This document shows positions 4,997 through 50,120 of a DNA stretch of 64,000 bases, piece by piece (the first letter of the stretch is position 1; each line of letters begins with the position of its first letter). The notes under the pieces are model-generated. The model was not told the origin of the DNA. It ran no database searches and saw nothing but the letters and a program-made list of their open reading frames with translations. The translations under genes and the position numbers were made by a program. The stretch is from Candidatus Aenigmatarchaeota archaeon (lineage in GTDB: Archaea > Aenigmatarchaeota > Aenigmatarchaeia > QMZP01 > QMZT01), in the NCBI GenBank assembly GCA_963726265.1, contig CAVSBQ010000002.1, positions 32,001-96,000 on the forward strand. The letters run 5' to 3'.

Positions 4997-6146
4997 ATGC
5001 TCAGGAAAATGTTCAGGAAAAAAATAATCATCAAATACGGCGAGCTCTGGCTGAAATCAGAGCCGGTGCGCATGCGCTTTTTGGAAACGCTCGCCTGACA
5101 ACGTGAGAAGCCAGCTCAAGCGGGCTGGGGTAAGGGACTTCAGACTGGAGAAAGACGAGGGACATGCTGATTCTCGAGTGCACGCACAGGAAATGCCCCG
5201 AGGTTCTCGGAAAGGTTTTCGGGGTTTCATGGTTCGCTTTCGCAGTTGAGACGCAGCCGACGATGAAGGCGATAGAGAAGCCCGTGCTCGCGCTCGCGAA
5301 AAAAATCGGCAGGGAGCAGACCTTCGCCGTCCGCGCGAGCAGGAGCGACAAGACGCTCGCCGTTCACCAGCAAGGACGTCGAGAACAGGATGGGCGCCAA
5401 GATAAGGAGGAAGGTCGACCTTTCGAAGCCCGACGTCACGCTTTTCATCGAGTTCAGAAAGGACAGGGCTTATGTTTATTCGGAAAAGATAAGGGGCGCG
5501 GGAGGGCTTCCATACGGCGTTACGGGCAAGGTCCTGTCGCTCATTTCAGGAGGCATCGATTCGCCCGTCGCGAGCTGGCTCATGATGAAACGCGGCTGCT
5601 CGGTCGATTTCGTTCACTTCAACGCCGTGGAAAGCGATGTCGCGAAACTCAAAGGCCTGGTGAAGAAACTCGGCGAATATGCGCCCGCGAAGCTCGCGCT
5701 TCACGCAGTGCCTTTCGCGATCTGTCCAGGAGGCGATTGTGAAGCACTGCGAGCGCCGCTTCACCTGCGTGCTCTGCAAGAGGCTCATGTACAAGGCCGC
5801 GGCGCAGCTCGCGGAAACGACGAAAGCGAAGGCGTTGGTGACTGGCGAAAACTTGGCCCAGGTCGCTTCCCAGACGCTGGACAATCTCGTCGCGAATGAC
5901 GATGCGGTTTCGCTGCCGCTTTTCAGGCCGCTGCTGTGCATGGACAAGGAGGAGACCATCATCCTCGCGAAGAAAATCGGGACATATGACCTCTCGATAA
6001 AGCAGGCGCACGCATGCAGGTTCGTGCCGCGCAAGCCGGCCACTGCCGCAAAAAGCGGAGTCCTCGTGCGCGAGGAAAAGAGGATAAAGCAGCTGGACAG
6101 AATCGTAAAGAAGGCGGTAAGCTCGCCGATAAAAACGCTGGTGTGA
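4997..6146 (+). CDS. thiI: tRNA 4-thiouridine synthase (THUMP + PP-loop, no rhodanese domain); frameshifted
   Basis: IIIKYGELWLKS, GAGGLPYGVTGK, SGGIDSPVA, CVLCKR, TGENLAQVASQTL, RPL and CRFVP, spread over several frames. Confidence 0.92.
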
Positions 6147-6148
6147 AA

Positions 6149-6662
6149 ATGGCCAAAAAGAAAAAGTTCAGGAATGCGCTTTTCATCGGCCGCTTCCAGC
6201 CGTTCCACGACGGCCATCTCAAGGTCATCCAGGACATCGCGCAGGAAAGCGAGGCGCTCGTCATAGTCATCGCAGGCCCCGCCCGGCCGGACCGCAGGAA
6301 TCCCTTCTCGTTCAAAGAGCGGAAGCGCATGGTTCAGCTCGCGCTGCGCGGCGAAGGGATAAAATATTCGATACACGAGACCCATGACGTCAACGACGAC
6401 GGGAGATGGAACAGGCACGTCAAAAAGTTCGGCCGCTTCGACGTCGCGTATTCTCGCAATCCCTGGACGGCGCGCTGTCTCAAGGCGCTTGGCATCCCCG
6501 TGAAAAAGCACAGGTTCTACGAGCGCTACAAGAACTGCGGCAGGGAAATAAGAAAGCGCATCCTGCACGGGAAGCGCTGGGATTCTCTGGTGCCGCAGGC
6601 TGTTTACAGCGTACGTCAGGAAAATAAACGGCGAGGCAAGGCTGAAAACAATATGCAAATAA
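6149..6662 (+). CDS. nadM: Nicotinamide-mononucleotide adenylyltransferase (cytidylyltransferase family); probable frameshift near 6610
   Basis: FIGRFQPFHDGH, RNPFSFKER, IRKRI and WDSLVP. The natural end YVRKINGEARLKTICK* lies in another frame. Confidence 0.8.
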
Positions 6663-6687
6663 AAATCTTAGCCGCGTTTAATACCTT

Positions 6688-6888
6688 ATGGGTTCCGTTT
6701 CTGATGGTGATTCGAAAAGCCTGCATCTTAAATGCTGGTGCGGGCATGAATATGATGTTCCGAACAACCTCGTCTTAATGGATGATGGCCTGACCCATCA
6801 ATACAACATATCTGGCAAATGTCCTAGTTGCGGAAAAGAAAGCGATCATAATTTGCTGTATGATTCCAAAACAAGAAACTTGACATAA
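6688..6888 (+). CDS. Small zinc-ribbon-like protein
   Basis: 66 aa with CWCGH and CPSCG motifs; AT-rich. Confidence 0.6.
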   Translation: MGSVSDGDSKSLHLKCWCGHEYDVPNNLVLMDDGLTHQYNISGKCPSCGKESDHNLLYDSKTRNLT

Positions 6889-7027
6889 CGCTTGCGTGAA
6901 TTCTCCGGCCGCGTTCCCGGTAAAAACCGCTATACTTCGTCCAAATTTATGGGTTTTCATAAAAAGAGACAAATATTATCACCCTCAGTCTTTATATATT
7001 TTATTTCTAACTTATTAGTAATAAATT

Positions 7028-8626
7028 ATGAAAAAAAGGAAATATGAAGATGGAGAAGGTCAGAAAATAGCTGCTCAGAAAGTTCGTGACCTGTTAAAAA
7101 GGTTGGATATTTCCGAAGAAAAGATACCTGATGAACTGAGCGCAAGACTATTTTACGATAATGGAGCGGCGTCTCTCCTTTCTATTGCCTATAACAGTTC
7201 AACTATAAGGGCAATTGAGGCTGCATATCCTGGTAAATTCAAACCTTGGCAGTTCAAACGAAAACCAAAAGGCATATGGCAGGGGGGAAATGCTTACAAA
7301 AATGCAGCGGAAGCAACCAGATGGCTGGTGGAGGAAAAACTCAAAATTTCTCTCAAAAAAGCCTCAAAAAAGGTAACCAGAGATGTTTTCACAGAATATG
7401 GATTATCTGGGATGTTAGATACCCTCTTTGGTGGGAACCCTTATCGTGCACTAGTCAATGCCTACCCCAAACTATATAAAGTTAGTGATGTTCAAAAAAC
7501 TGAAAAGAGGGGAATAGAATCCACGGAAATTAGTGATGACGATAAAGAATTTATAATTAAGAGATTTGAGCCATTAGCAAAGTATTTGGCTTCCAAATAT
7601 TTGCATCAGACCAAGTCATTAAAATATGATGATTTGGTTCAGATGGGTAGGATTGGAGTTTACTTTGCTGTAAGAGATTTAGGCTTAACCAAAAAAAACT
7701 TCAAGAGATTCAGCAGACAAATAAAATATTACATAATCAATACAGTGAGAGATGCTATCAATAAAGGATACGACAGAATACTTGATTTCTCATGCAGTGT
7801 GGATGACTATGTCTTCGAAAATAACAAAAAAAGATCTCTCGTGGAGATAATAACTGAAAAACACAAGGAACTTTTTGGTGAAAGAATTTTAACTTCCAAA
7901 GAAAGGAATTTGAGGTTCTATGGCATCTTAGAAAGGGGACTTTCTAAAGAGGAATACGAAAAATTAAAGGAGGAAATAGCAAAAACCATTACGAGACTAG
8001 AAACGAGAATGGCTAATATCTCTTGGGATCCTATGGACGAGGCTTTGGAATTTGTTAGAAAATATGCACCTCGTCATAAAAATACCCAGAAATGGGAACT
8101 TGGAAAACGTACAAATCTATGGGGAGGAGGAGCGGGAAGAAGGTTGGCAAAACAAGCTATACGTTACCTGTTTGAAGAAAAGCTAAAAATCCCAGAGGAA
8201 ACAATCCCAGAGGTTACAAGTAGCCGTCTATTTCACGATAATGGATTGGGTGGTATGCTGCTTCAACTTTACGATGGTATGTCATTTTTAGCAGTAAGTG
8301 ATGCTTATCCAAATAAATTCAAACCTTGGGAATTTAAAAACAGACCGCATCTATGGGGAACTAAGGATGGAATGAAATACGCGGCGGAAGCAACCAGATG
8401 GCTGGTGGAGGAAAAACTGGGGATTCCGCCAAATGAGGCATTGAAAAAAGTCAAAGCACAGGACTTCAAAGATTATAGATTATGGGGGATGCTGATGACA
8501 CTTTTTAAAGGTGATGGTGGATACCATCATGCCATTTTAAATGCCTATCCTGAATTAGTCCAAGCGGATCAGCCTACTGGAGATATAAATCCACATATAA
8601 GAAAATCTAATAATAGCTATAGATGA
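7028..8626 (+). CDS. DUF4046-like repeat protein with an internal sigma-70-like module
   Basis: Repeats AYPxKFKPWxFK...W...AAEATRWLVEEKL...YxLxGML...NAYP at both ends. Central segment EFIIKRFEPLAKYLASKY...YDDLVQMGRIGVYFAV...FSRQIKYYIINTVRDAI. The ORF is certain; the family calls are by eye. Confidence 0.65.
   Translation: MKKRKYEDGEGQKIAAQKVRDLLKRLDISEEKIPDELSARLFYDNGAASLLSIAYNSSTIRAIEAAYPGKFKPWQFKRKPKGIWQGGNAYKNAAEATRWLVEEKLKISLKKASKKVTRDVFTEYGLSGMLDTLFGGNPYRALVNAYPKLYKVSDVQKTEKRGIESTEISDDDKEFIIKRFEPLAKYLASKYLHQTKSLKYDDLVQMGRIGVYFAVRDLGLTKKNFKRFSRQIKYYIINTVRDAINKGYDRILDFSCSVDDYVFENNKKRSLVEIITEKHKELFGERILTSKERNLRFYGILERGLSKEEYEKLKEEIAKTITRLETRMANISWDPMDEALEFVRKYAPRHKNTQKWELGKRTNLWGGGAGRRLAKQAIRYLFEEKLKIPEETIPEVTSSRLFHDNGLGGMLLQLYDGMSFLAVSDAYPNKFKPWEFKNRPHLWGTKDGMKYAAEATRWLVEEKLGIPPNEALKKVKAQDFKDYRLWGMLMTLFKGDGGYHHAILNAYPELVQADQPTGDINPHIRKSNNSYR
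7307..8418 (+). repeat. Exact 35-bp intragenic direct repeat (7307-7341 and 8384-8418)
   Basis: GCGGAAGCAACCAGATGGCTGGTGGAGGAAAAACT occurs twice. TAAATTCAAACCTTGG is also repeated in the gene. Confidence 0.9.
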
Positions 8627-8705
8627 AATAAATCAAGATTGGAATTCTATTTAGGAAGGGCTAAAGCCTTAAGAAAAAATGCCGTATGCGCCGGCCGCGG
8701 ACTTA

Positions 8706-9200
8706 TTATTTGCCCAGGACTTTCCCGCTCGTGTCGATTTCCTTTGCGCGTATCCTCGTCGATGAAATCCTTTCCCGGTCGTCTGAAAGTTCCGCGGGCA
8801 CGCCGAATATATAAACTTCGTAAAGACCGCTTTCCCTCCTTCTCAGATTAAGTTTGTATGCCTTGGCCAGGGAGTCTTGGCCTACAATCATGACCTCGCT
8901 GAGATTTCGAAATTTGCAACTGGTGCAGTCCTCTTTGCCGTCAAGCGGCAGTATCTCGAATCTGCCTCCGTAAAATTGATACAGATGTTCGTACAACTTC
9001 CCGAATCTCTCGTCATAAGGTTGTATCAATTCCCGGAAATGCTTTTTTGAGAATTCACCAATATATCTGTCAGTCGTGAGTCTTACGACAACGCTGTCGG
9101 AAAGATTGAATGCATAACTGAACAACTTTTTGTGGCCTTCATGCAGGGGTCCGTAAGTCCCTCCCGTGCAGGCGCAGATGAACATGCGGGGGTCCTTCAT
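8706..9200 (-). CDS. Phosphopantetheine adenylyltransferase-like protein (divergent copy)
   Basis: GGTYGPLHEGHKKL, LTTDRY, LNLRRRESGL and ISSTRIRAKEIDTSGK. Confidence 0.8.
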   Translation of the reverse strand: MKDPRMFICACTGGTYGPLHEGHKKLFSYAFNLSDSVVVRLTTDRYIGEFSKKHFRELIQPYDERFGKLYEHLYQFYGGRFEILPLDGKEDCTSCKFRNLSEVMIVGQDSLAKAYKLNLRRRESGLYEVYIFGVPAELSDDRERISSTRIRAKEIDTSGKVLGK

Positions 9201-9233
9201 AGTGAAACATTGGCAAAAAATTTTAAAAATAGC

Positions 9234-9290
9234 TCATTTCCCTAAAATCTTCCCATGCTTGTCGATTTCATTCGCCCTTCAGGAAATCGC
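9234..9290 (-). pseudogene. Remnant 3' end of a third PPAT copy
   Basis: Reverse strand reads AIS*RANEIDKHGKILGK*, matching the C-termini of both flanking PPATs. Confidence 0.7.
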
Positions 9291-9297
9291 TCTGACT

Positions 9298-9789
9298 TCA
9301 CTTTCTTCCTTTCAGGATTTTCCCGCTCCTGTTGATTTCATTCGCACTTATGCGCGTCGACGAGATGGGCGCCCTGTCGGAGGCCAGGATCATGCCGATT
9401 TGCACTATTTCCAGCGGCTTCATGCCGTAGTCCTCGCGGATGAGGTTTATGCCTCTCGCGCCTGCTATGGTATCGCCGCTGACGATTATCGCCTCTATGC
9501 CCTTCTTCGGGTCGAGCACCTCGGGCGAGAAAAAATTCTCCAGCGGCGAAATGCGGTAGCGTTTTTTATCTGCTTTTATGGAAGCCATGAATTTCACAAG
9601 ACTCGCTTTCCTTTTCTCGAATTCGCTCACCCCGCGCTTGCCCCTGCGCATGGCGTACTCATCGCTCGACAGGCCGATGTAGCAGAACTGCGCGACCTCA
9701 AACGCCTTTCTGATCAGCGCCTCGTGGCCCTTGTGCAAAGGGACGTCGAAAGTCCCGCCGAAGCAGGCGGCCTTGTATTTCTTCTTCAT
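9298..9789 (-). CDS. coaD: Archaeal-type phosphopantetheine adenylyltransferase
   Basis: GGTFDVPLHKGH, GLSSDEY, AIIVS, INLIR..GMKPL and PISSTRI..NEI. Confidence 0.85.
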   Translation of the reverse strand: MKKKYKAACFGGTFDVPLHKGHEALIRKAFEVAQFCYIGLSSDEYAMRRGKRGVSEFEKRKASLVKFMASIKADKKRYRISPLENFFSPEVLDPKKGIEAIIVSGDTIAGARGINLIREDYGMKPLEIVQIGMILASDRAPISSTRISANEINRSGKILKGRK

Positions 9790-30570: not shown

Positions 30571-37972
<7,402 letters not shown>

Positions 37973-38460: not shown

Positions 38461-41400
38461 ATGAAAGCGAGAACGGGTCTTCTGTTTGCGTCATGCATAC
38501 TCATAGTTATAGTTTTGGCGCTGTCCCTTTTTCCGACAAAAGCCGCTGCGGCCTACAGGTGCTCGACATGCCAGGACAGCCCGAGCGTGTTCACGCTAGG
38601 CAAGGTGCAACTGGGGACCAGCAACACGCTATCGCTGAGGGGCTATGACCTCTACGGCATCAAGGAGATATCGATAAAATGCGAAAGGGCGGACGAAACG
38701 CCTCCGACCGTCGGCGTGAGCGCCATGCCTGTGAACGCCCTGAACTGCCCCGCCTTCCTGAAAAAGAATGCCAAGGCATCAATAAGCTGCGCCGACAGCG
38801 GCTCAGGATGCGACATGGAGAGCAAGAGCATAATGCTTTGGACCGAAAATCCGCCGGCAGCATGTCCATCCGACCCGTCCGATTACGATATGTATTTCCC
38901 GGACTCGAGCTACGACATAACCGAGCACACGTATGTCTGCGGCGCGGCCACAGACAACGCGGGCAACCCCGGCTTCTCTCCAAAGCCAATCGAGTTCTGC
39001 GTGGATTCGGAGAACCCGGAAGCCTCCCAGATATGGTATGAAAACCTGGGAGGGACTTCCGTCGACATAGTATGGTTCCAGTACACGCTGAACGCGGACT
39101 TCGACCACTATGAGCTCCATTATTCCCAGCACGCGGATTTCACGCCCGGCCCGGAAACCCTGCTTGCCAAGGTCATGACGCAGAAGACTGCTAACACCTA
39201 CGGCGTGGGCAACCTGGAAAAGGAGACGTTCTATTGTTTCAAGATCATCACCTACGACAAGACCGGCCTTACTTCGTCATCGGGAGAGCTTTGCCTGGAC
39301 ACGCTCCAGTGCAACGCAGGCGAGACGACGCAATGCTTCACTGACGACTACGGCATAACCTCATACGGCGATGACGTCATCACGCAAGGGGTATGCGAGC
39401 CGGGCGAAGCGGAATGTTCCGCGGGCTACTGGGGCTTGTGCGAGAACCAGGTCGGACCGTTCGCCGAGACGTGCAACGGGAAGGACGACGACTGCGACGG
39501 CTACACAGACAACTACTGGACTGGCGAACCCGCGCTGCTTTTCCGCTCCTGCACTGCGCCGGGCATATGCGGCATGGGCTATTACGAATGCGCCGGCGGA
39601 AAATGGGGCGACGAAAAGACCGACTGCAGCAGCCTGAGCTATGCGACAACCGAAGTCTGCAACGGCCTCGACGACGACTGCGACGGGATAAAAGACAACG
39701 TCGATGGAGCCACGTCGGTCGCGGCGACGAAATGCGGCTGCTACGGAGGAAGGCCTGCCACCACGGAGACATGCAACGGCATTGATGATGACTGCAATGA
39801 CTGGAGCACGCCGCACGAAGGGGTAGACGACGTCTATGACCAGCAGACGTGCGCATGCTACAGGGCCGCGCACGCCGCGGGAACGCTGCAGGAAACTTGC
39901 AACATGATTGACGACGACTGCGACGGACTCGTGGACGAGACATGGATAGCGACACTCGGCCATGGCTGGCCGCTTTATTTTGCAGGCTGCGGCGGCGGAA
40001 GCGTCTGCGAAGGCGGGCACTGGGAATGCAACGCCGCTGGGAACGGGACGGTCTGTTCGACCGTCGGCGGCAGCGAAAACGCAGTCGAACAGGAAACGTG
40101 CGACCTCATGGACAACGACTGTGATGGAACGGTGGACGAGGGCTGCGCGTGCTCTGCCGGCGAGTGGAGGAACTGCGGCCTTAACAAGGGGATATGCCAG
40201 CCGGGAACGCAGGAATGCGAAAGCGGCTTCTGGGGCAACTGCAGGAATTATGTCGGCCCACAGCCTGAAACATGCAACTGGCTTGACGATGACTGCGACG
40301 GGATAATCGATAATGTTAACGGCGGGAATTCCACGCAGAACACGCAGTGTGGGTGTTATAACGGAAGCGACCCTGCGGCGGAAACCTGCAACAACATAGA
40401 TGACAACTGCGACGGGATAATGGACAATATTGACGGCGGTAATTCGGTCGCGGCGACGGGCTGCGCCTGCTACGCCAACAGCACGTTCAGAGGCGTCAAA
40501 GGTCAGGAAATCTGCAACGGCCTCGACGACGACTGTGACGGAGCGGTGGACGAGACCTGGCCCGGCATAGGCACGGCATGCGGCACGGGAATATGCTCAG
40601 GCGGCGTCGTGAGCTGCGCCCTGGGCGGCAACGACACCGTGTGCTCGACCATGAGCTCCGCGGGCCTAGGCAACACGAGCGACGTGCGCCAGCCCGAGAT
40701 ATGCAATGGCCTCGACGATGATTGTGACGGGATAGTGGACAATGTTAACGGCGCCGCATCTGTCGGAGAAACGCAGTGCGGCTGCTATAATAATACTTAT
40801 GCAAAGGGAGCGAAGGCGGAGACGTGCAACCACATAGACGACGACTGTGATGGAGCGGTAGACAATAACCTGACATGCCTGTGTTATGAAGGCCAGAGCA
40901 AGCCCTGCGGCTCCAACGTCGGCGAGTGCAGCCTCGGCCGCGCCGCGTGTGATGGCGGCGTGTGGGGCGCGTGCAAGGGCGGCAAGAGCCCGGCAAAGGA
41001 GGTATGCAACAGGGATGACGACGACTGCGACGGGGTGATAAACAACGTCGGCGGCAAATATTCCATAGAGGAAACGCAGTGCGGCTGCTACAACGGCAGG
41101 AAGCCTTCCGTCGAGAAATGCAACGGTATAGATGACGACTGCGACGGCAAGGTGGACGACGACGTCGAATGCAGGTGTGAAACTGGCCAGGAGATGCAGT
41201 GCGGCTCCAACGTCGGCGTATGCTCACCAGGCACCAAGAAATGCATCGGCGGGAAATGGGGCGAATGCACCGGTGGCACGCTGCCTTCTGCGGAAACCTG
41301 TAACGGCGACGACGACGACTGCAACGGGGTCGTCGACGACGTGAACAGAGGAAATTCGATAGGCTCGTCCGCATGCGCGTGCTACAACAGGTTCGCCATG

Positions 41401-43743
41401 CCGGGCACGCAGGAGGAGATATGCAACGGGATTGACGACGATTGCGACGGAGCGATTGACGAAGGCTGCGGCAGCCAGCCGGGCCACTGCCAGAACGGCG
41501 TCATGGACGGGGATGAGAAAGGGATTGACTGCGGCGGCTCGTGCAAACTCTGCTCTGCGCCCGTCAGCGTGAGCACGTGGATGCTCGTTTTCGCGGTGAT
41601 CGCCGGCGTTATAGCCGTGTTCGGCATATTCCTCAGCTCGTTCTGGAAAGGCGAGAAGAAGTCGCTCTTCGAGAGGACGGGCGGTAGGCGCAGGAGCGCT
41701 TTCCTGTTTTCGGCATTCTTGGCCGCCTCGCTGTTCATGGTTGCATTATGCGTTTACCCGCTCACGGCAGAGGCGCAGGGCACGCTGCCCACCTTTGAGA
41801 AAATATGGAGCTGCGCCAACGGCGGCCTTTCGGGCTGCGCGGAGAACTGCGGAGGCACGAAATACGAGAAGAATATCGACCTGAGCTTCAGCGCGCCCGA
41901 GGCGGGCTATTACACCTGCACGATAACCGCAACCGCGAACCTTTTCAATTATGCGAACGGGGTCGAAGAAGTCGCGGAGTACAGCGACGTTTACCTGAAC
42001 GGCGCAAAGGTCGGGACAACCGAGGACGCATGGTGCCCGCCCAGCCCCGAATGCAAGAGCACCGTCCCGGACACGCCATCGACGGGCATTCTTAAAACTC
42101 CCACATATTTCCCCGGAGGCTACGGCCAGAGCGTCAGCAACTTCTGCAAGAAGGGCAGCGCCACCTTCAGCATATGGAGCATCCCTTCGTCCGAGCTGCA
42201 GGATGTATACAACCGTGAGCTCAACAACCAGGAAAGATCGTATAACATTTTCGGCCTGGGCAACAGCCAGAACAGGAATTCCATGATGGCAAGGTTCCAG
42301 TATTACATAACGAACTGGAAAACAAAGGCAGGCAGATACATCGTCTGCCTCGGCGGAGGGACGTGCGCGGCCTGCAATTGCTGCAACTGCTTCGAGAACC
42401 TAGAAGTCCAGGATACATGGTGCGGCGACGCCATAGACAGGCCCAACTGCCGCCTGCTGGTGGACGGAGGCAGCGGCGGCCTATCAGCCGACCCTTACGG
42501 CACTCTCATACGCACGGCGCCTTACACATACAAGGTCACATGGGATTCCGATGCGGGAGCCGTATGCCTGTCCAGGATATCACCGGCCTGCCCCAAAACC
42601 GGATCGCTGAGCGGGCTGTGCAAGCAAAGATGCATTGAAGCAAACGGCATTCCCGCATTCGCCTTCAACAACTACTGCGTGGGCAGCAGATGTTCAACCA
42701 CCTACACCAGCGCCTCAACAGGCACCACCACAGGCAGCATAAGCCTGAATTCCATAACCTGCGATGCCGTGGTAACGGAAGCGCCTGAAAGCTGCCCGGG
42801 CTACAGCTCTTCCTCCGGCTCATCATCAACTTCGCAGCTTGCCTCGCCCGATGAAGCCAGCGGGGATTTCAGCGTCGTGGTCATGCCCGACACGCAGACT
42901 CTCGCCGAGAGCAAGTTCTGCAGCCAGACCTCGTGGATAAAGGACAACAAGAAAGCCCTCAACATAAAGTTCGTGGTCCATCTTGGCGACCTGGTGGAGG
43001 AGCCGTTCTCGGCAGCGCGGTGGCAATGGGCTGACAAATGCATGGACACCCTTGATAACGTTGTCCCTTACCTCGTCATTCCGGGCAACCACGATTACGA
43101 AAACTACTGCAGGGACGAGGTGAAAAGCACAATCATGTATAACCAGTATTTCCCTTATACCAGGTTCCAGGATTACAGCTGGTACGGCGGCCATTACCCT
43201 GCGAACGGCAACCAGAACAGCTACGGCCTTTTCGCCAGCGGCGGCAAGAAGTTCCTGGTCATCGGCCTTGAGCTGTGCCCCAGCGACGCGGTGCTGAGCT
43301 GGGCCGACGGCATAATCAACAAATACCCGGACAGGGAGGTCATACTCTTCACCCACGCCTATCTCAACACGACCAACAAGAGACTTGCCAGCATCGAGGG
43401 CGCCACGGGCATCGCAATAAAATGCTGCGCCGACGGCAGGGGCAACAGCGGAGTGGACATGTGGAACGAGCTGGTGACGAAGCACCCGAACATAATCATT
43501 GTCGCCTCGGGCCACGTCCCCGGTACGGGCAAGAGGACGGATTACGTGAGCAGCGGCTCGGATACGACCAAGCCCATCCACCAGACGCTGCAGGATTACC
43601 AGGACAAGGCGAATGCCATGCTCAGGATTTACACCTTCAGCCCTTCGAATAAAAAAATCACGGTTAAGACGTATTCTCCCTACCAGAAAGTATATGACGC
43701 CGCGTCGTCGAACAGCTTCTCCCTTCCGTGGCCAGGTATCTGA
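38461..43743 (+). CDS. Giant surface protein: signal peptide, FN3-like domain, about 14 CNGxDDDCDG repeats, TM, second signal-like segment, Cys-rich region, calcineurin-like metallophosphoesterase
   Basis: FN3-like DFDHYELHYS...NLEKETFYCFKI; DCGGSC then TM. Phosphoesterase motifs DTQ, HLGDLV, PGNHDY, FTH and SGHV. Confidence 0.85.
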   Translation: MKARTGLLFASCILIVIVLALSLFPTKAAAAYRCSTCQDSPSVFTLGKVQLGTSNTLSLRGYDLYGIKEISIKCERADETPPTVGVSAMPVNALNCPAFLKKNAKASISCADSGSGCDMESKSIMLWTENPPAACPSDPSDYDMYFPDSSYDITEHTYVCGAATDNAGNPGFSPKPIEFCVDSENPEASQIWYENLGGTSVDIVWFQYTLNADFDHYELHYSQHADFTPGPETLLAKVMTQKTANTYGVGNLEKETFYCFKIITYDKTGLTSSSGELCLDTLQCNAGETTQCFTDDYGITSYGDDVITQGVCEPGEAECSAGYWGLCENQVGPFAETCNGKDDDCDGYTDNYWTGEPALLFRSCTAPGICGMGYYECAGGKWGDEKTDCSSLSYATTEVCNGLDDDCDGIKDNVDGATSVAATKCGCYGGRPATTETCNGIDDDCNDWSTPHEGVDDVYDQQTCACYRAAHAAGTLQETCNMIDDDCDGLVDETWIATLGHGWPLYFAGCGGGSVCEGGHWECNAAGNGTVCSTVGGSENAVEQETCDLMDNDCDGTVDEGCACSAGEWRNCGLNKGICQPGTQECESGFWGNCRNYVGPQPETCNWLDDDCDGIIDNVNGGNSTQNTQCGCYNGSDPAAETCNNIDDNCDGIMDNIDGGNSVAATGCACYANSTFRGVKGQEICNGLDDDCDGAVDETWPGIGTACGTGICSGGVVSCALGGNDTVCSTMSSAGLGNTSDVRQPEICNGLDDDCDGIVDNVNGAASVGETQCGCYNNTYAKGAKAETCNHIDDDCDGAVDNNLTCLCYEGQSKPCGSNVGECSLGRAACDGGVWGACKGGKSPAKEVCNRDDDDCDGVINNVGGKYSIEETQCGCYNGRKPSVEKCNGIDDDCDGKVDDDVECRCETGQEMQCGSNVGVCSPGTKKCIGGKWGECTGGTLPSAETCNGDDDDCNGVVDDVNRGNSIGSSACACYNRFAMPGTQEEICNGIDDDCDGAIDEGCGSQPGHCQNGVMDGDEKGIDCGGSCKLCSAPVSVSTWMLVFAVIAGVIAVFGIFLSSFWKGEKKSLFERTGGRRRSAFLFSAFLAASLFMVALCVYPLTAEAQGTLPTFEKIWSCANGGLSGCAENCGGTKYEKNIDLSFSAPEAGYYTCTITATANLFNYANGVEEVAEYSDVYLNGAKVGTTEDAWCPPSPECKSTVPDTPSTGILKTPTYFPGGYGQSVSNFCKKGSATFSIWSIPSSELQDVYNRELNNQERSYNIFGLGNSQNRNSMMARFQYYITNWKTKAGRYIVCLGGGTCAACNCCNCFENLEVQDTWCGDAIDRPNCRLLVDGGSGGLSADPYGTLIRTAPYTYKVTWDSDAGAVCLSRISPACPKTGSLSGLCKQRCIEANGIPAFAFNNYCVGSRCSTTYTSASTGTTTGSISLNSITCDAVVTEAPESCPGYSSSSGSSSTSQLASPDEASGDFSVVVMPDTQTLAESKFCSQTSWIKDNKKALNIKFVVHLGDLVEEPFSAARWQWADKCMDTLDNVVPYLVIPGNHDYENYCRDEVKSTIMYNQYFPYTRFQDYSWYGGHYPANGNQNSYGLFASGGKKFLVIGLELCPSDAVLSWADGIINKYPDREVILFTHAYLNTTNKRLASIEGATGIAIKCCADGRGNSGVDMWNELVTKHPNIIIVASGHVPGTGKRTDYVSSGSDTTKPIHQTLQDYQDKANAMLRIYTFSPSNKKITVKTYSPYQKVYDAASSNSFSLPWPGI

Positions 43744-47329: not shown

Positions 47330-47423
47330 AAAATTTTCCTGATTTTTACGTGGTGCAAAATAGCTTTAAATAGGTTCGTAGCATAATTAATAATAATTTC
47401 TAAGTTTGTGGGGTGTCGTTATA

Positions 47424-48035
47424 ATGGCTAAAATTTCCAAGCAATCTGCAGGTGTCGGCAAGGCCACTGCCAAAAGCGAATTCACGATAAAAATCGAGAA
47501 CGTCGTCGCTTTTACGTCGCTGAACATAAAAATTTCATTGAACAAGCTGGTAAACTCGGTCGAGAACACGGAATACGAGCCGGAGCAGTTCCCGGGCCTC
47601 GTCTACAGACCGACGAATCCCAGAGCCGCCGCCCTTATCTTCTCTTCAGGCAAAATCGTATGCACGGGGACGAAATCGATAGACATGGCCAAGGAAGCGA
47701 TGAGGAAGGTCGTCGGGAAGATAAAGGATTCCGGCTTCAAGGTCCCCGATAAATACCCGATACAGGTCGAGAACATAGTCGCCTCCTCAAGAATAAAGGC
47801 GGCGCTGAACCTCGAGGACATCGCCTTCTCGCTGGAGAACGCCGAATACGAGCCGGAGCAGTTCCCGGGCCTGGTTTACAGGATAGGCGACCCGAGAGTC
47901 GCGTTCCTGCTGTTCTCTTCCGGCAAGATAATCTGCACTGGCGCACAGAGCGAGGACGACATCCACCGCGCGCTGGCCAAGTTCAAGGTCAAGCTGGAAG
48001 GCATCGGCGTCAAGGTCAAGCCGATGGCGGAGTGA
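47424..48035 (+). CDS. tbp: TATA-box-binding protein
   Basis: Two repeats of IEN(V/I)VA...EYEPEQFPGLVYR...FSSGKI.CTG. Confidence 0.98.
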   Translation: MAKISKQSAGVGKATAKSEFTIKIENVVAFTSLNIKISLNKLVNSVENTEYEPEQFPGLVYRPTNPRAAALIFSSGKIVCTGTKSIDMAKEAMRKVVGKIKDSGFKVPDKYPIQVENIVASSRIKAALNLEDIAFSLENAEYEPEQFPGLVYRIGDPRVAFLLFSSGKIICTGAQSEDDIHRALAKFKVKLEGIGVKVKPMAE

Positions 48036-49902: not shown

Positions 49903-50120
49903 TGAGCGTGGGGGGATTCGGACCCCCGGCCTCAGGCTGAAACAGCGAAGGACGCGCGCTTCGCGCGCGTCGGCATGCCAAATCCCTGGCTGCGCTCCGC
50001 TTCTTCGATGTCATCAAGCATTCGAATCCGGATGCTTTCAATTCTTCTAAGCCTCGTTCCGCGCCAAGGCGCAGAACTGCATAGAAGACCCGCGCTCTAT
50101 CCAGGCTGAGCTACACGCCC
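49903..50120 (-). tRNA. tRNA-Arg(UCU) with a ~143-nt intron at 37/38
   Basis: 5' exon GGGCGTGTAGCTCAGCCTGGATAGAGCGCGGGTCTTCTA (50120-50082); 3' exon AGCCTGAGGCCGGGGGTCCGAATCCCCCCACGCTCA (49938-49903). The acceptor, D, anticodon and T stems all pair. Confidence 0.85.

Follow-up and report, generated by a model that had tools for sequence, protein, structure and literature searches.

The window analysed here, a stretch of 64,000 nucleotides from the genome of a Candidatus Aenigmatarchaeota archaeon, contains a gene for a protein of 532 amino acids in which a module homologous to sigma-70 factors is embedded between DUF4046 repeats, two on either side (Table 1). Sigma factors are regarded as a hallmark of bacterial transcription; archaea use TBP together with TFB. 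An initial annotation of this DNA, made from the letters alone, had drawn attention to the gene, and the three peptide strings quoted there are all located inside its open reading frame (ORF). The resemblance claimed there between the middle of the protein and sigma-70 is borne out, for region 2 and the linker following it, as homology by our profile, hhalign and structure matches, which agree with one another. We tentatively favour the explanation that the gene is intact, lies on a recent islet and belongs to a so far undescribed family in which a compact SigH/ECF-type sigma module is placed between pairs of DUF4046 repeats, the members of which may be repeat-targeted sigma derivatives.

The central segment of the protein, comprising residues 160-345 (186 residues) and named SIG after the profile made of the middle, is a sigma-70-type module. 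All of the 13 NCBIfam families that matched are sigma factors, with the SigH-like family NF006147 as the best (E 1.8e-9), aligning protein residues 170-345 with profile positions 21-194 of 201. The best family matches being SigH-type, the likeness to SigE/SigK proposed earlier is not upheld. Pfam Sigma70_r2 was matched at residues 177-242 (E 8.7e-4, 19.5 bits), with a score that remains below the curated cut-off. A SIG profile of three sequences, made of the central domains of this protein and of the metagenomic proteins P0012 and P0096, matched 37 distinct sequences in the PDB, 34 of them sigma factors, and the top 24 are all sigma factors. With HMMER against 1.84 billion representatives, the same profile matched 864 proteins at E <= 1e-3, true sigma factors being reached with E values to 4e-13. 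Of 25 top matches annotated with Pfam, 18 are short (102-272 aa), and each of these contains Sigma70_r2, in 17 cases above the cut-off; Sigma70_r4_2 was also listed in 13 of the 18. Alignment by hhalign of six embedded modules with 28 ordinary sigma factors gave 98.9% and an E value of 1.2e-17 over 140 columns. A word-index search with the central region alone returned the query as its sole match. Elsewhere in the genome, a second Sigma70_r2 match (C2:316290-316451, E 0.012) was rejected as noise-like, since it falls in overlapping high-GC frames with an internal TGA.

The structure prediction leads to the same assignment. AlphaFold modelled residues 160-345 from a 65-row alignment with a mean predicted local distance difference test score (pLDDT) of 88.2. 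Foldseek searches with this model gave weak E values, the best being 3.8e-3 for a SigH model, and all of the rows listed but one are sigma chains. Re-alignment with VIA-align superposed model residues 6-91 on sigma domain 2 with Z scores of 8.2-10.0 and a root-mean-square deviation of 1.7-3.2 A over 65-83 residues, 49 of the 50 rows being sigma entries. Sigma region 2 is thus matched by profile and by structure.

Not all parts of a sigma factor are kept to the same extent in SIG. In region 2.2, which is the core-binding surface of sigma factors, the six embedded modules all share D202, Q205 and R208, and the motif reads Q[MIV]GR in the fusion family as compared to QEG in ordinary sigma factors. 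Positions of regions 2.3 and 2.4, which in sigma factors serve to melt and recognise the -10 element, vary within the family and include aromatic residues in this protein (FKRF...KYYI). The linker that follows aligns with the 'PLNxSxSLD' stretch of the SigH-type sigma factors. The helix-turn-helix (HTH) of region 4 could not be recovered: Pfam gives neither Sigma70_r4 nor Sigma70_r4_2, and the structure search barely covered this half of the module. The hhalign alignment extends no further than column 164 of the 220 template columns, which is the start of region 4.1, and the alternative alignment by MAFFT places an acidic WDPMDEALEFVRK helix opposite the basic recognition helix at the cost of an 8-residue gap. 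The absent Pfam match, the stop of the alignment and the acidic helix support the earlier description of region 4 as degenerate. Since the curated cut-offs for sigma families are not reached and the region-4 HTH is not recovered, we name the module a sigma derivative and not a sigma factor.

The segments flanking SIG were identified by the Pfam family DUF4046 (PF13255) in two stretches, with 25.5 bits against a cut-off of 22.8 and the best match at residues 443-490. A local repeat hidden Markov model (HMM), built from the units of the pure DUF4046 array P0002, resolved four copies of ~73 residues with i-E values from 1e-14 to 1e-23. The DUF4046-like repeats noticed on both sides at the outset are confirmed by the two profiles, two repeats being present on each side. 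The two repeat pairs are also alike in DNA, with 70-94% likeness when offset by 1077-1080 nt. AlphaFold modelled residues 1-160 on the basis of an alignment of 46 DUF4046 proteins, with a pLDDT of 93.5 and a predicted template modelling score of 0.83, and in this model each repeat consists of five helices, one long and four short. The ESM Atlas returned only DUF4046 clusters (0.83-0.87). About 40 of the 50 weak rows of the structure comparison for DUF4046 are TetR/AcrR-type or unnamed transcriptional regulators (Z 3.3-4.6), aligned mostly over the N-terminal DNA-binding part of the regulators, which gives only a hint that DUF4046 might bind DNA. The best Z score of 4.6 is within the range of chance helical likeness, and a new fold is not claimed.

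DUF4046 repeats are also present in several contexts free of sigma modules. They occur in 254 plasmid records of Bacillus/Priestia and related organisms, in one of them beside a replication-initiation gene. A GTDB scan yielded 136 relatives, of which 80 were kept; these are distributed over Eisenbacteria, Clostridia and Riflebacteria and include 7 archaeal loci, and SIG was found in none of the 80. DUF4046 is joined to an integrase in P0079 and to the HTH of a resolvase in P0101, and a PilB/GspE ATPase of Rifleibacteriota-type genomes has it as its C-terminal arm. The net charges of +26 for the 532-aa protein and +12 for its first repeat pair, the integrase and HTH fusions and the regulator rows are weakly suggestive of DNA binding. 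The PilB/GspE-type ATPases (MshEN + T2SSE) are ~1170-1215 aa long and carry four DUF4046 repeats at ~740-1050, an arrangement seen in L054, L062, L085 and ~20 similar loci and conserved in Riflebacteria-type genomes. Another metagenomic protein, P0024 (836 aa), contains, in this order, six DUF4046 repeats, a segment that by eye looks like a PD-(D/E)xK nuclease motif and three HTH-like units with weak Sigma70_r4_2 / HTH_AsnC matches. No mention of DUF4046 was found in the literature searched.

The joining of SIG to DUF4046 arrays is not confined to this gene and is seen in at least eight metagenomic cluster representatives, as identified with the local HMMs. P0012 (606 aa) and P0251 have the architecture RR-SIG-RR, and P0105 extends it to RR-SIG-RR-R6. 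P0104 is arranged as R3-SIG-R2-R9, and its SIG is 55% identical to that of the 532-aa protein. Two representatives carry two SIG modules, namely P0106 (SIG-R3-SIG-R2-R4) and P0212 (SIG-R2-SIG-R2), while in P0096 and P0200 an N-terminal SIG is followed by repeats. In a tree of 65 modules, six embedded SIG modules fall on one side of a branch with an SH-aLRT of 99; the tree is a quick maximum-likelihood tree only, with long branches flagged, and within this limit it agrees with a single origin of the embedded modules. Beyond the fusion proteins, a GTDB scan for the SIG motif gave 84 pattern matches, none of which was confirmed, and a metagenome scan gave three loci with ordinary or partial sigma factors, all without repeats.

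Compared with known systems, the nearest relatives of the module are the compact SigH-type/ECF-like sigma factors (NF006147, TIGR02859 spore_sigH, TIGR02937), to which region 2 and the linker are homologous and with which the domain-2 fold is shared. The region 2.2 pattern DDLxQxGxIG of the SigH-type sigma factors is kept in the 532-aa protein. It differs from them in scoring far below the curated cut-offs, in the region-4 HTH that is not recovered, in being embedded in DUF4046 repeats and in having a host without a bacterial RNA polymerase. The repeat unit of ~73 residues, present four times, is the same as in other DUF4046 (PF13255) proteins, but the known contexts of the family (plasmid proteins, arrays and the PilB/GspE arm) are sigma-free, unlike the one described here. 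The sigma-70 genes of DPANN genomes (fam00359 in Castelle et al. 2021, PMC8204110) are a further parallel, being likewise members of the sigma family that stand beside TBP and an archaeal RNA polymerase. In contrast to the 532-aa protein, the sigma-70 genes of this phylum are ordinary multi-region genes (r1.2, r2, r3, r4) without DUF4046. It had been stated initially that no described system with this architecture is known. This is true of the fusion itself in so far as the fusion of a sigma-70 derivative with DUF4046 is unreported; it needs a qualification in that sigma genes of the lineage are already on record, as PMC8204110 documents for DPANN, and in that the fusion recurs in metagenomes.

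The 532-aa protein is basic, with an isoelectric point of 9.56 and a net charge of +26. Its residues 16-510 align with P0012 without any frameshift (41% identity over 517 columns). The composition of the gene sets it apart from its genome: its GC is 0.379 and its GC3 0.326, as compared to 0.537 and 0.642 for the average of the 599 long ORFs in the main contig. A lower GC is found in only 13 of these, and in GC and GC3 the gene belongs to the lowest ~2% of the long ORFs. It is located on a low-GC islet, and only 2% of the 2-kb segments of the contig are as GC-poor. The islet is flanked by the NMNAT-like gene and by the first PPAT-like gene, which are separated by 2164 bp here (6594 to 8758) versus ~100 bp in the same-genus genome G002; in G004 the NMNAT-like gene directly adjoins the second PPAT-like gene. 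The islet holds only the sigma-DUF4046 gene and a 66-aa ORF, for which the best Pfam match is DUF7575 with 15.7 bits, below the cut-off of 28.5, and for which PHROGs gave no match. The element TTTATATA upstream of the ATG may be the archaeal promoter of a near-leaderless mRNA, and it may also be due to chance because the region is AT-rich. A 9-nt direct repeat, CCGGCCGCG, flanks the gene at 6905 and 8691. As chance alone would, by our own estimate, produce ~16 such 9-mers over 2.9 kb, it was not taken as a target-site duplication.

The genome that hosts the islet (1.13 Mb, 88% complete, 0.81% contamination) is archaeal in its transcription genes. Three TBP genes with two TBP repeats each are present, at C2:79487-79996 (window 47406-48032), C2:301610-302128 and C2:1104139-1104657, in agreement with the TBP noted earlier in the window. 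A search with PF04997 gave a single match, an archaeal Rpo1N of 838 aa, and thus no bacterial-type core RNA polymerase was found by this profile in the genome at its 88% completeness. The archaeal nature of the host is in this way supported by the three TBP genes and the one archaeal Rpo1N. A search with the full protein found no match in 40 relatives, which comprised 4 members of the genus, 18 of the family and 18 of the order. Of the 370 other genomes covered in the phylum, 5 contain a DUF4046 protein of any kind, and SIG was found in none of these 5. The 2.1-kb low-GC insert between syntenic genes and the lack of a match in the 40 relatives are in accordance with the horizontal acquisition suggested before, and from these sequences we infer a recent, strain-specific import of the gene into a DPANN archaeon. 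The viral origin that had been offered as an option is disfavoured, as no match was obtained in 50,697 phage records (tblastn), in two viral-contig scans or in PHROGs, the latter searched at E <= 1e-3 with the 532-aa protein, P0012 and P0096.

Sigma-70 genes have been recorded before in this group of archaea. PMC8204110 describes them in DPANN genomes, especially in Woesearchaeota, and presents them there without anti-sigma partners or a known role. In our sample of 201 genomes from the phylum, TIGR02937 was matched over the cut-off in 23; weaker matches were present in 185 genomes, most of them to the HTH only. The long sigma ORFs examined contain Sigma70_r2 in 10 of 10 and region 4 in 9 of 10 cases. 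Since DUF4046 repeats are present in none of the 12 sigma loci of the phylum and the SIG profile matches only two of the 12, weakly (E 2e-5 and 2e-3), the sequences indicate that the sigma-DUF4046 gene is a separate SigH-like acquisition. Same-order relatives were seen to encode full sigma-70 genes (r1.2, r2, r3, r4) within ORFs that are 767-807 aa in length and have long extensions without assignment. One genome (G029; L014, C20:14261-20852) has three sigma-70 genes within 7 kb, and in another (G024) the sigma-70 gene (L019, C1:122661-123344) is located on the same contig as Rpo1N.

Taken together, these observations lead us to the tentative preference stated at the beginning. In the mechanism we propose, the sigma-2 part would dock on the clamp coiled coil of RNA polymerase through region 2.2, and the basic DUF4046 arrays would supply the recognition of DNA or of a partner that region 4 has lost. 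The repeat arrays would then take over targeting in the home organisms of the family. As the canonical partner, the bacterial beta-prime subunit, is not encoded in this archaeon, the gene is here most likely newly imported cargo, and its product could not act as a classical sigma factor; if active here at all, the protein might serve as a DNA-bound regulator.

Several observations weigh against this explanation. The scores of the module miss the curated sigma cut-offs (19.5 versus 24 bits for Pfam Sigma70_r2 and 24.0 versus 42.9 for TIGR02937) and those of the SigH equivalogs by a wide margin (37.4 versus 212 bits for NF006147 and 28.4 versus 294.8 for TIGR02859). Among solved structures, the DUF4046 fold finds no close match, the best Foldseek E value being 1.7 and the best Z score of VIA-align over 48,161 chains 4.6, with none >= 5. 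The presence of DUF4046 as an arm of PilB/GspE ATPases fits protein binding at least as well as DNA binding. In the cluster look-up no names or taxa were given for any fusion protein, all of them lying on metagenome contigs, so that the import of a bacterial family into an archaeon is only something we infer. The TATA-like box and the sigma-70 genes in 23 of the 201 phylum genomes leave room for an archaeal function. Finally, four public DNA runs that contain 5-6% of the sampled words (none contains >6%, and no RNA run is listed) cover the NMNAT-like and PPAT-like flanks of relatives and not the islet, the junctions of which are uncovered. Two contigs of run X1 join 6562 to 9209 (with 593 other letters between) and, weakly, 6640 to 9279 (side 22); these joins are islet-free forms in relatives.

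Among the other explanations, the one that survives best regards the product as a DNA-binding or mobile-element protein independent of RNA polymerase, in which the arrays do the work and SIG is a structural, dimerising or DNA-contacting core. The abundance of sigma-free DUF4046 arrays, in the plasmid records and in every kept GTDB locus, favours it, as do the fusions to integrase and resolvase HTH, the basic nature of the 532-aa protein and the lack of conservation of the -10-recognition positions in the fusion family. However, a purely structural role would not predict that region 2.2 is the invariant part, and we regard this explanation as rather improbable.

It is also conceivable, though unlikely in our judgement, that the protein regulates the archaeal RNA polymerase, with the sigma-2 part on the clamp coiled coil of Rpo1N and the repeats as a tether to DNA. 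The Rpo1N clamp coiled coil is homologous to the clamp helices of bacterial beta-prime, and this segment is highly conserved in 23 relatives. The conserved region 2.2, the TATA-like box upstream and the recurrence of sigma-70 genes in the phylum, including the one on the Rpo1N contig of G024, are consistent with such a regulator. Against it, the gene is strain-specific and compositionally foreign, and the Q[MIV]GR of the family in place of the QEG of ordinary sigma factors makes the polymerase partner uncertain. The more general proposition that sigma-2 is a portable clamp binder and the DUF4046 arrays an addressing device in place of region 4 ('repeat-addressed sigma factors'), with such modules in DPANN archaea acting on the Rpo1N clamp as would the ordinary sigma-70 genes of the phylum, strikes us, from the sequences considered, as a long shot.

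The sigma-2 fold and the bacterial type of the region 2.2 motif would also suit an effector directed against the RNA polymerase of a bacterial neighbour or host, in which the sigma-like module would compete with the sigma factors of that bacterium. DPANN archaea live attached to other cells; according to PMC8204110 they are predicted symbionts, some of them known episymbionts of other archaea. But the partners named there are other archaea, and reading of the ORFs beside the gene, made with no dedicated predictor, revealed no signal peptide, secretion signal or delivery system; we hold an effector to be very unlikely. Least probable of all is an assembly chimera or contaminating bacterial fragment, which the strongly deviant GC, the indel-type assembly errors (such as the split ThiI gene) and the lack of a public run with the islet would allow, and against which weigh the low contamination of the genome, the location of the insert inside a contig of 1,105,251 bp, 39 kb from its end, and its position exactly in the gap between two genes that same-genus genomes have side by side, synteny being kept to the left and to the right of it.

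A few features of the surroundings may be mentioned. The PPAT-like (cytidylyltransferase-like) genes next to the islet are tandem paralogues at 8706-9200 (-) and 9298-9789 (-). The first of them shows 94% DNA identity to G001, as compared to 66-81% to congeners for the neighbouring genes, and the gene upstream of it is different in each congener examined, so that by sequence this region looks like a hot spot of exchange. On the other side, the NMNAT-like gene, matched by Pfam CTP_transf_like, has a 3' end at ~6600-6661 (+) that fits better in another frame by eye, ending near 6661, and a contig of a relative in X1 has one base fewer at 6609; position ~6609 is possibly another single-base assembly error. 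The ThiI gene is split in the window at 5390-6146 (+), with ORF 5390-5896 covering ThiI positions 1-72 and the end of THUMP and ORF 5679-6143 covering positions 71-195, which is probably due to an assembly indel causing a frameshift near 5700. Rfam places a tRNA spread over 218 nt at 49903-50120 (-), presumably with a long intron, while ARAGORN reports none in the window. Two giant consecutive ORFs are present at 32459-37972 (+, 1837 aa) and 38461-43743 (+, 1760 aa).

Table 1 Features of the sigma-DUF4046 gene and its islet, in window coordinates
Feature	Positions	Strand	Basis or remark
Low-GC islet, ~2.1 kb, GC 0.381	6662..8705	.	Between NMNAT-like and first PPAT-like gene; boundaries approximate
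Putative gene, 66-aa ORF with CxC...CxxC	6688..6888	+	ORF list; zinc-ribbon-like by eye; GC 0.413
TTTATATA, TATA-box-like	6991..6998	+	30 bp 5' of ATG; read from sequence
Sigma-DUF4046 gene, 532 aa	7028..8626	+	Architecture R-R-SIG-R-R
DUF4046 repeat 1 (residues 9-78)	7052..7261	+	i-E 1.2e-18
DUF4046 repeat 2 (residues 84-156)	7277..7495	+	i-E 6.3e-22
Sigma domain-2-like fold (residues ~165-255), region 2.2 DDLVQMGRIG	7520..7792	+	VIA-align, profiles
Linker with predicted beta-hairpin (residues ~256-285)	7793..7882	+	Alignments; strands at model residues 102-105 and 108-111
Helical remnant at the place of region 4 (residues ~286-345), family motif WDPxxE at its end	7883..8062	+	hhalign, MAFFT
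DUF4046 repeat 3 (residues 365-438)	8120..8341	+	i-E 1.3e-23
DUF4046 repeat 4 (residues 443-509)	8354..8554	+	i-E 1.5e-14

The case that emerges is sharper than that of a sigma-like gene in an archaeon: a sigma derivative has retained the part that docks on the polymerase, has lost the part that reads the -35 element and is bracketed by DUF4046 repeats. Giant proteins from metagenomes show this design again, in some cases with two sigma modules. Should the repeats direct the module to DNA, the family would represent a new way of building promoter specificity. Binding of the module to the archaeal clamp would bear on the mixing of the bacterial and archaeal initiation machineries, and should the reading that involves the Rpo1N clamp be true, a sigma-type factor would for the first time be seen at work in Archaea. 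Even if the gene is merely idle imported DNA in this archaeon, it would still provide the first testable functional link of DUF4046 to transcription.

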